A program made the translations under genes and the position numbers. From Octopus vulgaris (lineage: Eukaryota), in contig OX597825.1 of NCBI GenBank assembly GCA_951406725.2, forward strand, positions 16,058,001 through 16,122,000: a DNA stretch of 64,000 nucleotides, read 5' to 3'. The notes beneath the pieces were generated by a model. That model had not been told where the DNA came from. It saw only the letters and a program-made list of their open reading frames with translations, and searched no databases. Position 1 is the first letter of the stretch. Every line of letters begins with the position of its first letter. This document shows, one piece after another, positions 20,826 through 44,974 of this stretch.

Positions 20826-22519
20826 TATATATATATATATATATATATATATATATATATATATATATATATGCACATATATATATGCATACATACAGAA
20901 ATGTATATGCTACTTGATTACTTGATCAATTAAATTTCATTAGTTCTAATGGGTTTAAATCTAAAAGGAAATAAATATATAAGTATCAATAGGTATATAA
21001 GCATGCACACACACACACACACAGATATGCACACATGCTCGCTCACACACACACATATGTTACACATATATTTGAATATATAGATATATGTATGTGTATA
21101 TGCACGCACGCACATGCATGGTCTCATACACATGCACATATATTATGCATATATTTGAATATATATATTTGTGTATACACACACACACATGCATAGATGC
21201 TCACACACACACACACTCTCACACATATATTACACACATATATTTGAATATATATGTATATGTATACACACACACACATGCATAGATGCTCACGCACACA
21301 CACACTCTCGCACATATATTTGAATATATATGCATGTGTATACACACATACACACATGCATGCCTGCTCTCACACCGAGACACACACACGCACATATATT
21401 ACACACATATATTTGAATATATATGTATATGTACACACAGACACACACACACACACACACACATAAACCATTCTACGTTTCCTTTTATGTCTCCTGTTTT
21501 TATTATTCTTTAATACCATTACCAATGTCCTCCTTAATATCATTTTTAACTGTTTTAAATCAAACAATTCAACACATTTATAACGAAACAAAAATTTCTC
21601 TCTTTAATCAATGGAAATAAAGAAAAATTCTATAAATATTGAAACTGTTGGAAATAAAACGCTTTACCGAATTTCTACGAAACAACCCGTGAGGACAATA
21701 AACCAAGTTTTAATGGAACAGCCTTTTATTCCCTTCTCTCTTTCATCCTTTCCTTTCTTCTCCATTCCGTTCTTTGTTTTCTGTTCCATTCTTGTCAATT
21801 CTTTTCAATTCTTTTCTCTAATTACCTATTTAATTCTTCACGCTTATTTAATTAATACTCCCACCTACTTTCACAATCTGGACAGCTTTTTCTTTGGGTC
21901 TGCTGGTACAGAATGCTCTGTGTCTGTGTATGTATATGTGTGTATTTATATATATATATATATATATATATATATATATATATATATATATATATATATA
22001 TGTATATATATATATGTATGTATATATATATATATATATATATATATAAGGCAAATAAGAAAATGGAGAGGATATACAATTGACAAAAGTCAGCCAGTAA
22101 ACATTCAATTATATCTATTTATTAATTGATTATAAACAAGTGTTTAAGAACATTGTTTACATTATTTACATTTGAAGGATATTTCTCCTCATCTTGTTTG
22201 TTGTCTTGGGGAAATTTCAAACCTGGGTACTCATTCGATGTTGTTATCGTTGTTGTTGTTGTCATCGTCATTATTGTTGTTCGTTGTCATTGCTGCCATC
22301 ATCATCATCATCATTCTGGTCACTTCCTGGAATCGAACTCAGAATCTTGGGGTTAGTAGCCTGCACTCTTAACCACTACGCCATGGTATGAATAATGAAG
22401 AATAATAATAATAATAATAATAATAATAATAATAATAATAATAATAATAATAATAATAATAATAATAATAACATCGAAAAATACCTTGGGAATGAGAACC
22501 CAGGTTCAAAATTTTCCCC

Positions 22520-22567
22520 TGACACCTGATGAAAGCTGGAGGGTATATCAGCCGAAACGTTGTGTTA
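22520..22567 (+). ncRNA. Minimal type I hammerhead ribozyme (family 1)
   Basis: Stem I TGACAC/GTGTTA, CTGATGA 22526-22532, stem II GCTG..CAGC, GAAA 22554-22557, palindromic AACGTT stem III, predicted cleavage after 22561. Confidence 0.8.
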
Positions 22568-23287
22568 ACAACAAACAAGATGAGGACAAATATCCGCCGA
22601 ATGTAAATAATGTAAATAATGTACATAATTCCTCATCTCTTAAATATAGAACTGTGTTGACATGTTTTTTAAGTATTCAATTGCAATATTGCCATGCAAT
22701 AGTAAGCATTCGGTTAAAAATACGTAGGTACACATCTAGTAGTATATTGGATATTTACTATCCCTTAGATGGTTTCTTAACCTCTAACTCATACAGACAT
22801 ATATACATATATATATGTATATGTATATATATATATATATATATATATATATATATATATATATTTTTAAATAAAAAATTACCCTTTAACAGGTAATTTT
22901 TACATGCTAGAAATAGCAGCCAACACGGCCAAAACCACAATTTAAATGCTAGGCCACTGGTGGTGATATTTATAATGAATATTCGCCACCCTATACACAT
23001 ATCTTATGTATAATATATATGTATATATATATATATATATATATATATATATATATATATATATGTATGTATGTATGTATGTATGTATATATATATGCAT
23101 GTATATATATATATATGTATGTATATGTATATAGCGAGAAGTTGAGGTTATAAGAGATAATGGTGTCATTGAGACCCAAGGATGTCAGGTAATGCTGAAT
23201 AAGTGCTATAGACAGACCATAGTTAAGTTCCAGATTCGGTAATATTGCAAATAAAGGGTTCACCGTTGGTTCTATGTCAGCGTGTGT

Positions 23288-23440
23288 ATATAAGAATTTT
23301 TTTGCGTAATAAGATAAAAAAAACCAAGGCTATATAGATATTAGAGCATTTATAGATAGATAGACCTTCTATCTATAAATGCTCTAATACCTACACAGCC
23401 TTGGTTTCTTTTTATCTTATTACGCAAAATGTTTCTTATA
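23288..23440. repeat. Fold-back inverted repeat, ~73-bp arms with 7-nt spacer
   Basis: 23288-23360 is largely complementary to 23368-23440. Confidence 0.85.
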
Positions 23441-24164
23441 TATATATATATATATATGCGCTGACTACTTTTTTGATGCTTGAAGGAGAGGTGTACATGT
23501 AGGTATTTAACCTTTTAACTAAATTATTCATGTATATGCAGAATCTGTTTATCTGCATGTATATATATATAAAAGTGAAATGTGTGTGTGTGTGCATGCA
23601 CATATGTATGTGTGTGTGTGTATTTACATGTGTGGTATGAGCTTGTGATATTTGCGTGTGTATATGTGGGCGTATATGTGTGTGGGGGTGAGTGTGGGTG
23701 TATATATGTGCGTGTAGGAGTGAGTGTGAGTGTATATATGTGTGTGTGTTGGTGTGGGTGTATATATATATGTGTGTGTATTTATGTGTATGAGCTTGTG
23801 ATATTTGTGTGGGGGGGGTGTACATATCTGCGTGTGTTTATATCTGGTATGAGCTTGTGATATTATTGTGTGTGTGTATTTGTGTGTTTATGTATGAAAA
23901 TGTGACACTGACACACACACACATACACACACACACATACACACACACACATACACACAAATTTTCATCACCATACTTTTTATGCCATTTTTCCATTCTG
24001 CCATATATTGGTGAATCCTTACAAAAGTCTTTCCACTCATCATGGTTCTCTATCTCTCCATCTAGCAACATATATATATGCTATAGCCCCAGGCCAACTA
24101 AAGCCTAGTGTGCAGATTTGGTAGATGAAAACTGAAAGAATCCCATCGTATATATATATATATA

Positions 24165-24317
24165 CTTTATTTAAAGCAGCAGAAAATTCAACAAAATCTG
24201 TTACTCTGAGTTTCTCGTTGCCGTTCATCAGACAGTTTTTGCTAGACTGTCTGATGAACGGCAACGAGAAACTCAGAGTAACAGATTTTGTTGAATTTTC
24301 TGCTGCTTTAAATAAAG
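24165..24317. repeat. Perfect 72-bp inverted repeat with 9-nt spacer, HHR on each strand
   Basis: 24165-24236 is the reverse complement of 24246-24317. Confidence 0.95.
24246..24291 (+). ncRNA. Type I hammerhead ribozyme (family 2); a copy with fuller stem I lies on the minus strand at ~24191-24242
   Basis: CTGT-CTGATGA(24251-24257)-ACG GCAA CGA-GAAA(24268-24271)-CTCAGAG-TA-ACAG. Stem III is ACTC/GAGT with a GUA triplet at 24278-24280. Confidence 0.72.
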
Positions 24318-24407
24318 CATATTACTCTACCACTGGTATTTGAGTACTCTTTTTTCCACCTTGTTTCATATTTATGTGTTTACTCCGGTATATATATATA
24401 TATATAT

Positions 24408-43064: not shown

Positions 43065-43570
43065 GGAAGGAAGGAAGGAATAGAGGGGTGGAAGGGGAGG
43101 AAGGAGGGAAGGAAGGAAGGGAAGAAGGGAGGGAGGGAGGGAGGGAGGGAGGGAGGGAAGGAAGGGAGGGAGGAAGGAAGGAAGGAAGAGAGGTAGGATG
43201 GAAGGAGGGAAGGAAGGGAGGGAGGGAGGGAGGGAGGAAGGAAGGACGGAAGGAAAGAAGAAAGGAAGGAAGGAAGGAAGGAAGGAAGAAAGAAAAGAAG
43301 GGAGGAAGGAAGGAAAGAAGGAAGGTGGGAAGGGAGGGAGGAAGGAAGGAAGGAAGGAAGGGAGGAAGGAGGGAAGGAAGGAAGGCAGGAAAGAAGGAGG
43401 GAAGAAAGGAAAGAAAGAAGGAAGGGGGGAGGGAGGAAGAAAGAAACAAAAAAAGAAAGAATCAAAGAAAGGAAGAAAGAAAGAAGGAAAGGAAGGAAGA
43501 AAGAAAGAAAGAAAGAAACAAACAAACAAACAAACAAACAAAGAATGAAAGGAAGGAAGGAAGGAAGGAC
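43065..43570. repeat. (GGAA)n/(GGGA)n polypurine tract
   Basis: Directly visible. Confidence 0.96.
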
Positions 43571-43964
43571 GTTAATCTTCAAACTAGAGACTTGGTGTAA
43601 AAATGCTTGCAAACAAAAAGTCTGCTAAAGACATCCAAGCAGACGAAATAATGCTAAGCATTTCGCCCAACGTTCTAACGTTTTTGCCAGCTCAGCTCGC
43701 CACCTTAAAGATTTTTGATGATTGATGATGCCATTGATGTTCCTCAATAACCATGGGAAGGACATGAACAAAGAAGAAATTCCAGAGGGAAGATGTATGG
43801 GGAAGGAGGACTGGGTGTATTGGTTTGTGCAAAGTATGGTATGAATGGATTGGACACAGCATGAATGATGGGAGGAAGAGAATGAATTGAATGGGGCAAG
43901 AATGCCTGACTAAAAGTGACATGGGGCCAGCCAGTTCTGAGAAGCAGAGACCATTTTAGCAGCG

Positions 43965-44252
43965 GAAGAGGAGGAGGAGGAGGAAGAAGAAGAAGAACAA
44001 GAACAAGAAGAACAAGAGAAAGAAAAATGAGAAGAAGGAGGAGGAGAATGAGAAGAAGAACGAGAAGAAGAAGAAGAGGAAGAGGAGGAGGAGGAAGAAG
44101 AAGAAGAAGAAGAACGAAAAGAAGAACGAGAAGAAGAAGAAGAAGAAGAAGAAGAAGAGGAGGAAGAGGAAGAAGAAGGAGGAGGAGAAGAACAAGAAGA
44201 ATGAGAAGAAGAAAAAAGGAGAAGGAGAAGAAGAAGAGAGAGAGAGAGAGGA
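43965..44252. repeat. (GAA)n/(GGA)n polypurine tract
   Basis: Directly visible. Confidence 0.96.
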
Positions 44253-44824
44253 GACAGCATACCCATAGGTTAGATGTTGAAATGTGTCTGTGAGTGAGTT
44301 TCCTTTTCTAAAGTAATAATTAAGGTCATTGCTACCCACAGCTCACTTACAGTAAGTGGGTAGTTTCTAATATCTTTAATCTTTCTCACAAAGATTAATA
44401 TTTATTCTGCATCAAGATTAACGGTGACAACATAGATTACTAAATACCTTTCCTAGGGACACAACAAAACATCTGCAACAATCTGGCTAGAATAGGAATT
44501 CACAACACATAAGAGGCAGTAGTTTCTTGCCCCAATCACTTGAATAATTTTGTATTTTCATCTCTGGCAAACTGTTTCTGCCACTCTTTACATCTTTACT
44601 TTTCTCTCTCTCTCTCTCTCTCTCTCTCTCTCTCTCTCTCTCTCTCTCTCTCTCTCTCTCTCTCTCTCTCTCTCTCTCTCTCTCTCTCTCTCTATAAATA
44701 TATATATATATATATATCCCCTACTTCTTCGCTCTCCTGTGTGACCCTTCTGTCCAGCAGTCGCCATGATAGATTGGTAGCCACTACACACATTTTTTTT
44801 CTCTCCTTGTTTCTTTCTGTGTTC

Positions 44825-44860
44825 CTTTCTGTGGAAGAGAGTAGGCTCGAAACATTAAAG
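44825..44860 (+). ncRNA. Hammerhead-like minimal fold with non-canonical core (family 9)
   Basis: CTTT-CTGTGGA-A-GAGA GTAG GCTC-GAAA-CA-TT-AAAG. A6 is replaced by U and there are further mismatches. Confidence 0.4.
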
Positions 44861-44974
44861 ACTTTTTCAATTCCTGAGCGTTATACTAATACATCTGTTT
44901 GTTTTCTACACCACCTGTCTTTGTCTTTTATTTTTTTCATGAATTCTCCCTGTGTATATATATTTGTTATCGAG

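Follow-up and report, generated by a model that had tools for sequence, protein, structure and literature searches.

Hammerhead motifs in a 64-kb stretch of the octopus genome

The window analysed here is a stretch of 64,000 nucleotides of Octopus vulgaris DNA (OX597825.1, positions 16,058,001 to 16,122,000, forward strand), and it contains a series of short repeats with type I hammerhead ribozyme (HHR) folds and a fragment of the reverse transcriptase (RT) of a Penelope-like element (PLE). The repeats belong to ten families, here called E1 to E10. Very probably they are independent insertions, likely all copied by PLE proteins: six families are ends of protein-coding PLEs, that is of their pseudo long terminal repeats (pLTRs), and four are short non-coding elements for which those proteins likely act in trans. 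The features are listed below with window coordinates, strand and the first base of the HHR core.

22144..22388, minus strand: E1 inverted arm, with a tRNA-derived head containing A and B boxes (22316-22388), a decayed trinucleotide run and a tail piece from which the HHR is deleted
22391..22471, plus strand: (AAT)n run inside E1, between tRNA head and HHR tail
22472..22655, plus strand: E1 direct arm with the HHR tail, core 22526; SINE-like (short interspersed element), upstream PLE frame in 0 of 30 loci
24160..24390, both strands: two truncated E2 pLTRs joined tail to tail, cores 24231- and 24251+; a putative PLE endonuclease C-terminus is linked to the family
26577..26655, plus strand: second E2 copy, core 26592, GAAA box mutated
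27085..27179, minus strand: 3' fragment of an E9-family pLTR, ending before the HHR
27249..27466, plus strand: E10, part of a 355-nt HHR unit free of open reading frames (ORFs), U3.G8 core 27258; permuted as well as tandem copies elsewhere
27945..28225, minus strand: E3, a partial copy of an ORF-free unit of 534 nt, with long stem II and core 28166; permuted as well as tandem copies elsewhere
29210..30126, plus strand: putatively Neptune-like PLE RT fragment, frameshifted, truncated at both ends, without a pLTR of its own
32661..33046, minus strand: E4 truncated pLTR, core 32890, with inverted arm; spliced form of the PLE 3' region
33101..33370, plus strand: E5 truncated pLTR, core 33202, inverted arm with decayed core 33169-; family linked to a putative GIY-YIG frame
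35604..35960, minus strand: E6 truncated pLTR, U3-A8 core 35717, inverted arm 35874-35960; family linked to RT and endonuclease (EN) frames
39302..39535, plus strand: E7, decayed palindromic copy of an element of about 250 nt with fixed 5' end, G3-C8 core 39414; upstream PLE frame not found
39975..40135, minus strand: truncated pLTR of E8 with long stem II, core 40095; some copies of the family lie behind a PLE endonuclease frame
44725..44955, plus strand: E9, decayed pLTR of putatively Neptune-like PLEs related to the window RT; core 44829, U at position 6

A first-pass annotation of the window had listed HHR folds at most of these places, and the follow-up found a type I HHR-like fold at or beside every site that it named. 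The descriptor specifies in this order stem I, CUGANGA, stem II, GAAA, a short or palindromic stem III and NUH. In its strict form it matches the window five times (22526+, 24231-, 24251+, 32890- and 33202+) and has no match in any of 40 block-wise dinucleotide shuffles, so that the enrichment over shuffled sequence is borne out. With one core mismatch permitted there are six matches, 27258+ being added, as compared to a shuffle mean of 0.6 and a maximum of 2, and 35717- is recovered with a U3-A8 core. The weaker sites are decayed copies and the majority sequences of their families fold properly; at 39414+ the GAAA box is mutated in the window copy and intact across the family. Core 24231- is the mirror copy of 24251+, the long-stemmed motif 40095- includes as its 3' side the position 40017 given in the first-pass list, and the HHR at 27258+ was absent from that list.

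Nine of the families were searched genome-wide, giving at least 302 to at least 2825 first-look candidates each, of which 40 were scored and 25-30 loci kept; the kept loci have flanks of 1.5 kb and are the copies nearest to the window's own, not a random sample. E9 is represented by 62 matches counted among the loci collected in the other searches. Every family proved to be a genome-wide repeat. Could the motifs nevertheless be chance folds in AT-rich, repeat-rich DNA? Wide descriptors yield 0-2 matches in shuffled windows, and an Rfam scan of the window has no hammerhead among the matches listed (150 of 319). However, besides the contrast with the 40 shuffles, strict motifs number 21 per 400 kb in 40 arbitrary 10-kb stretches of the genome and 0-1 in five shuffles, and the folds are consensus features of their families. 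Chance folding can practically be dismissed; the ten motifs are genuine parts of genome-wide repeats, and this minimal form of the HHR escapes the Rfam models.

Six families are ends of protein-coding Penelope-like elements

All motifs had been taken for parts of non-autonomous retroelements. This view stands for four families (cores 22526, 27258, 28166 and 39414) and fails for the other six, E2, E4, E5, E6, E8 and E9, which are 5'-truncated ends of protein-coding PLEs, an already known kind of element. Long copies of all six have PLE frames upstream, placing the same termini on long PLEs and supporting the proposed link between HHR motifs and PLEs. Same-strand frames were found upstream of the HHR in 1 of 30 loci for E2, in 1 of 30 and one further, extended locus for E4, and in two of 30 (E5), two of 25 (E6) and three of 25 loci (E8). 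The search for them used translated loci as protein baits, and in the case of E2 and E5 the bait was taken from the loci of these same families. That this bait represents a PLE endonuclease is suggested by a weak Pfam GIY-YIG match (E5, E 0.012), mutual similarity and the look of the motif; the 78-residue E2 piece had no match to Pfam GIY-YIG.

A complete frame with RT and EN was found for the E9 type only, pieces of both for E6, and EN only for E2, E4, E5 and E8. Relatives of the window RT fragment number in the thousands and reach open frames of 1214 codons, and ten long loci of the E9 type have RT, cysteine (Cys) linker and GIY-YIG motif. In Pfam these PLEs match RVT_1 above the cut-off (E 1.7e-7) and GIY-YIG weakly, below the cut-off (E 0.008). 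The Cys linker is what suggests the label Neptune-like, a clade placement drawn from motifs. The E9-type HHR lies about 0.5 kb downstream of the frame in all ten long loci, and in seven of them it occurs twice, once in each of the direct repeats that enclose the frame at a distance of 4.5-4.6 kb from each other. E9 itself is homologous to the pLTR of the long loci (75%) and to the pLTR behind another RT relative (88%). For E2, E4, E5, E6 and E8 direct-repeat pLTRs flanking the frame were not seen in 25-30 loci each.

Copies of the PLE-linked families show graded 5' extensions and truncation, and mirror arms are present in six of the ten window elements tested. Most of the elements had moreover been described as abutting microsatellites, which is true of (TA)n for most families, not all, and untrue of the (AAT)n at 22391-22471, which is internal to E1. 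Counting (TA) repeats of at least four units within 30 nt of the 3' end (background 7%), 26 of 30 E2 copies, 30 of 30 E4, 29 of 29 E5, 15 of 21 E8 and 17 of 25 E3 copies are adjacent to (TA)n; the association is weaker for E6 (9/25).

The E4 family in addition records splicing. One long copy has a pair of GT splice donors and a single AG acceptor, the latter 13 nt 5' of the core. Among 30 copies, 17 have the near donor joined to the acceptor, six are unspliced, one used the far donor and six are mutated or truncated; the copy in the window is of the spliced form. Loci L291 and L073 display the alternative donors in the PLE 3' region. Since spliced and unspliced copies both became integrated and coexist, an RNA step is needed. 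In E2 and E5 an acceptor-like sequence was also noticed shortly 5' of stem I.

The local reverse transcriptase and the question of a cluster

The first-pass annotation placed a decayed Penelope-like RT at the centre of a cluster, and such an RT is indeed present, at 29210-30126, frameshifted and 73% identical to an intact RT plus GIY-YIG frame. A Pfam search with the fragment matched no family, and a PDB sequence search with its intact relative matched nothing. Were all motifs non-autonomous ribozyme retroelements clustered around this RT and mobilised by it, one could point to the non-autonomy of four families, to the E9 pLTR, which belongs to relatives of the local RT, and to the six insertions found with wide descriptors, all of which lie within 13 kb (p about 0.002 under uniform placement, a post hoc value). 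Against this stand the six families that run into PLE frames and the state of the RT: being frameshifted, cut at both ends and without a pLTR behind it, it cannot have mobilised its neighbours and is rejected as driver; it is a truncated bystander.

The density of motifs also speaks against such a cluster, with 5 strict motifs per 64 kb in the window as compared to 21 per 400 kb in the arbitrary stretches, and 5 in 200 kb adjoining the window. Seven of the 21 background motifs belong to a single tandem array, and a manual count of insertions gives 13 per 400 kb; on this basis the window has four insertions where 2.1 are expected (Poisson p about 0.16). Enrichment of HHRs at the level of the window is rejected, its density being near the genome background, and what is left of the proposed cluster is clumping between 22.5 and 35.7 kb. 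The clumping likely arises because this region is richer in (TA)n, which makes up 12% of positions there and 7% in the genome. Mobilisation of a local cluster by the local RT is therefore highly improbable. Amid the clump lies a (TA)n tract of almost 1 kb (31000-31975). Extrapolated to the 2.8-Gb genome, the number of HHR motifs is of the order of 10^5, and the random stretches L343-L380 hold at least ten further HHR families, in several of which stem II contains an insert of 40-60 nt.

E1, a SINE-like element with a hammerhead tail

E1 is a SINE-like, non-coding, dispersed element with a tRNA-derived front at a fixed 5' end. None of the copies at 30 loci extends beyond the 5' end of the head. 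The B box or the whole head directly precedes the (AAT)n run in 16 of 30 copies, and the other 14 are cut inside the run or have a head only in the mirror arm; when the head is matched across all loci, 26 of 34 matches lead to the HHR tail. (AAT)n was considered as insertion target and rejected, as the run lies inside the element. The consensus of 23 heads aligns best to genomic tRNA-Arg(TCG) with z 10.7, other tRNAs reaching 7-10, in a comparison with 30 genomic tRNA genes of 8 classes. The Rfam tRNA model gave no match on the single head tested, and relaxed ARAGORN output on the heads was discarded as noise. Target site duplications (TSDs) of at least 9 bp flank 7 of 29 copies (control 1%).

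The tail of E1 is HHR-bearing and PLE-like. No PLE frame was found upstream in 30 loci, and when a related HHR family was used to look for an autonomous partner, only E1b (L313-L341) turned up, which is itself tRNA-headed. E1b is an older relative that shares the HHR tail and has another tRNA-like head, occurs in long and internally deleted forms and likewise has no frame upstream in 30 loci. Both share a second B-box-like module just 5' of the HHR. Mobilisation of E1 by PLE proteins is probable.

Two further observations concern the E1 tail. In the inverted arm (22144-22237) exactly the HHR is missing, cut out between short repeats flanking stem I, and at 15195-15285 there is another 5'-truncated E1 tail without HHR.

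Retrozyme-like families E10 and E3 and the fixed-end element E7

In E10 the sequence upstream of the HHR is, at many loci, the element's own downstream part. Direct pairs of HHRs are spaced by 355 nt in L258 and 336 nt in L302, and a relative with 73% identity forms an array with a period of 359 nt (L342:2300-4800, at 20.0 Mb), composed of 5.6 direct copies and an inverted pair; the core in this array is canonical. Contigs of one sequencing run, guessed to be of RNA, cover the array deeply, which by itself is no proof of expression. E3 has the same permuted arrangement, with a period of 534 in L179. The units of both families are ORF-free, the longest ATG frame being 30-45 aa, and folded as circles they reach z of about -4 against mononucleotide shuffles, a lenient control. 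Covariation of the stems within the E10 lineage, a check called for by the first-pass annotation, is supportive only, as the sample is small and derived from structure: all 11 HHR pairs are kept in five sequences with four double changes, a score reached in 1 of 500 shuffles. One of 25 E10 loci has a weak upstream match to a PLE bait (E 0.001). These properties fit an assignment of E10 and E3 as new members of the non-LTR retrozyme-like elements.

E7 also has a fixed end: on the element's own strand, all 30 copies stop at or short of one 5' point. Target duplications of 8-13 bp are found in four of the six non-inverted copies with the optional tail, as compared to 2% in the control. Its core reads GUGAACA, with a G3-C8 pair, in at least 34 of 42 copies. 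In a lizard PLE an engineered C3G/G8C double change, the counterpart of this pair, is reported to restore cleavage in part (PMC11167929).

Core variants and catalysis

The consensus CUGANGA/GAAA/NUH is present in E1, E4, E5, E8 and half of E2, and E6 has the known U3-A8 variant. The other cores deviate: C4 in E3, G3-C8 in E7, U6 in E9 and U3.G8 in E10. C at position 4 occurs in 15 of 17 parsed copies of E3 and in 14 of 28 of E2. Of 45 distinct copies of the E9 type, 44 have U at core position 6, where A is usual, among them those of a near-identical, young, putatively Neptune-like family. A natural A6C change lowers Mg-dependent cleavage according to PMC7151607. The G10.1-C11.1 pair that closes stem II is present in E1, E6, E7 and E9, replaced by G.U in E10 and by A.A in E2 and E4, offset in E5 and hard to read in the long-stemmed E3 and E8. 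In representative copies stem I has 4-7 bp and stem II 2-6 bp, with only the outer stem II pairs counted for long stems. A palindromic stem III is found in all ten families, forming duplexes of 4-10 bp; when no palindrome is required of stem III, 6 of 12 distinct segments are perfect palindromes, against a random mean of 1.7 and maximum of 7 (2000 draws).

Are these ribozymes able to cleave? Instead, the folds might persist as signals for the PLE protein, to which it binds or which promote dimerisation. The deviating cores of several families would agree with such a non-cleaving role, as would the lizard PLE, whose HHR mutants are described as without effect on insertion in vitro and for which no reads end at the cut site (PMC11167929), and the frog retrozymes, 8 of 9 dimers of which are stated to have failed to cleave (preprint 10.64898/2026.07.22.740005). 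However, across unrelated families positions 3 and 8 still pair through compensating changes (C-G, U-A, G-C), and the GAAA and NUH boxes are conserved, in agreement with selection for catalysis. In addition, minimal PLE HHRs are reported to cleave as dimers (PMC4209133). A purely non-cleaving function is unlikely. A natural PLE hammerhead with G3-C8 or U6 was not found among the papers listed; figures, supplements and a survey of small hammerhead variants may hold one, and the survey possibly the C4 core too.

How the elements may have been copied

How could such short repeats be inserted? In the lizard PLE the protein is described as nicking DNA rich in AT and as priming reverse transcription within uncleaved RNA, 3' of the HHR; two start sites bound the optional tail, and the HHR cleaves only with protein and is dispensable for insertion in vitro (PMC11167929). 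In the octopus a PLE protein probably likewise nicks an AT-rich target and primes within the RNA slightly downstream of the HHR. As a rule an early stop of reverse transcription, or fold-back, would then leave a short HHR-bearing stub with a mirror arm. Short RNAs that retain the pLTR signal, those of E1, E3, E7 and E10, are likely copied in trans. The palindromic stem III may pair two HHRs, so that tandem transcripts would be cut to unit length, probably with help of the protein, and cleavage is possibly dispensable for insertion.

As far as sequence can tell, E1, E3, E7 and E10 look like non-autonomous elements, and since they show the insertion footprint of PLEs, mobilisation by PLEs is likely. 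Several points weigh against this interpretation. The PLE dependence of the four families, although likely, is read from the footprint, and this is incomplete: (TA)n at the 3' end is seldom seen in E1 (1/29), E7 (5/30) and E10 (6/25). Among the nearest 25-30 copies of each no autonomous partner was found, and such a sample with 1.5-kb flanks may miss a rare link to a coding frame. The flanks of E7 are unique, one of the seven E1 TSDs is a (TA)n run, E3 copies reach only one unit upstream, and the covariation set comprises only three independent lineages with the structure read from the same sequences. Finally, given U6 in E9, C4 in most of E3 and half of E2 and the A.A closing of stem II in E2 and E4, some of the HHRs may not cleave.

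It could alternatively be assumed that all ten families are pLTR remnants of coding PLEs, the E1 head being a promoter captured in a 3' untranslated region and the tandems of E3 and E10 local duplications. Most copies of the PLE families are indeed short stubs and long copies are rare (1-3 of 25-30), as this alternative would have it. However, no copy of E1 continues beyond the head, where its 5' end is fixed, at many loci E10 is preceded by one and the same permuted sequence and a diverged relative forms an array of 5.6 units, and the tailed E7 copies have TSDs against a fixed 5' end (4/6). Remnants throughout are accordingly improbable, and the division into six families of coding-PLE ends and four non-coding families copied in trans is preferred. 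A more specific version, in which E1 and E1b would be tRNA(Arg)-derived SINEs with a Penelope pLTR tail that are copied by PLEs, beside retrozymes, a fixed-end G3-C8 parasite and an active Neptune-like U6 family, is tentative and somewhat less likely to hold than to fail in some part.

Relation to known systems

Remnants of PLEs have been described as dispersed single minimal HHRs, as pairs on opposite strands and with a U3-A8 core (PMC4209133). The present motifs resemble those of that report in the single motifs of truncated PLEs, the opposite-strand pairs, the palindromic stem III, U3-A8 and the many families per genome, as well as in an extra base between positions 9 and 10.1 and an intron ending just before stem I. 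They differ by their cephalopod host and by G3-C8, U6 and the A.A closing of stem II, none of which is mentioned in its text, though figures and supplements may differ, and by number, the extrapolated 10^5 or so per genome standing against 2,000-9,000 given there.

Non-LTR retrozymes (Cervera and de la Pena, 2020, PMC7229834; Li et al., 2026, 10.64898/2026.07.22.740005) are likewise ORF-free tandem units with one HHR each, to which the 355-359-nt units of E10 and its relative and the 534-nt unit of E3 correspond; the preprint argues that retrozymes are PLE derivatives. In contrast to them, the families described here have minimal palindromic HHRs, are mostly monomers with mirror arms of the PLE type and are known from genome sequence alone. 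The texts of the two reports sample no cephalopod.

PLEs with endonuclease of the Neptune and Penelope/Poseidon clades (Craig et al., 2021, PMC8557442; Frangieh et al., 2024, PMC11167929) share with the coding elements here an RT with C-terminal GIY-YIG between direct repeats of the HHR, an inverted 5'-truncated copy, the optional tail, (TA)n targets and, in the E9-type element, a Cys linker before the endonuclease. The clade placement here differs in that it comes from motifs rather than from a tree.

The schistosome SMalpha is of tRNA origin. SMalpha and Sjalpha are short non-coding repeats in which, as in E1, a type I HHR follows a promoter; E1 differs by its minimal PLE-type HHR, the internal (AAT)n, the PLE-like tail and inverted insertions of the PLE type (PMC6765202, PMC8490949). 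The octopus SINEs OK, OR1 and OR2 are, like E1, short tRNA-derived repeats (Ohshima and Okada, 1994, via PMC4824008, PMC4758252); in the texts of these two reports OR1 and OR2 are cited as CORE-SINEs and a ribozyme is not mentioned, the comparison with E1 being one of descriptions. In the open literature no paper was found on these families or on a tRNA SINE carried by PLEs, subscription journals, Repbase, Dfam and SINEBase lying outside the search; the schistosome SMalpha comes close as a precedent. The six PLE-end families add members to an already known kind, E3 and E10 are putative new retrozyme members, and E1, E7 and the U6 core are variants.

Host context and other repeats

Two stretches of the plus strand (36537-36645 and 40229-40580) resemble exons, being bordered by AG and GT and having open frames; they have no Pfam match. 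The HHR elements are probably intronic in a host gene. SINE-like repeats of the tRNA type, an abundant kind that lacks the HHR, are found at 24410-24800, 28880-29228, 36000-36390, 37880-38290 and 38920-39300, and one such repeat is interrupted by the RT fragment. A 129-nt tandem repeat with five copies of 96% identity (18910-19544) contains no HHR detectable with the descriptor.

Significance

The signal in the window comes mostly from ordinary PLE debris, for which published work already gives the explanation. The usual partners of SINEs are long interspersed elements (LINEs). If the proposed origin of E1 is true, a SINE transcribed by polymerase III and mobilised by PLE proteins would extend the biology of SINEs, and E1 would constitute a minimal cis template for PLE engineering. 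The natural G3-C8 and U6 cores, in families spread by thousands, offer a direct test whether PLE hammerheads must cleave. With some 10^5 motifs in the genome, many of them in introns, residual cleavage, if there is any, could affect host transcripts. Moreover, if the more specific version is true, E1 and E1b, the retrozymes, E7 and the U6 family would together define what a PLE template needs and which core changes are tolerated in a protein-assisted hammerhead.

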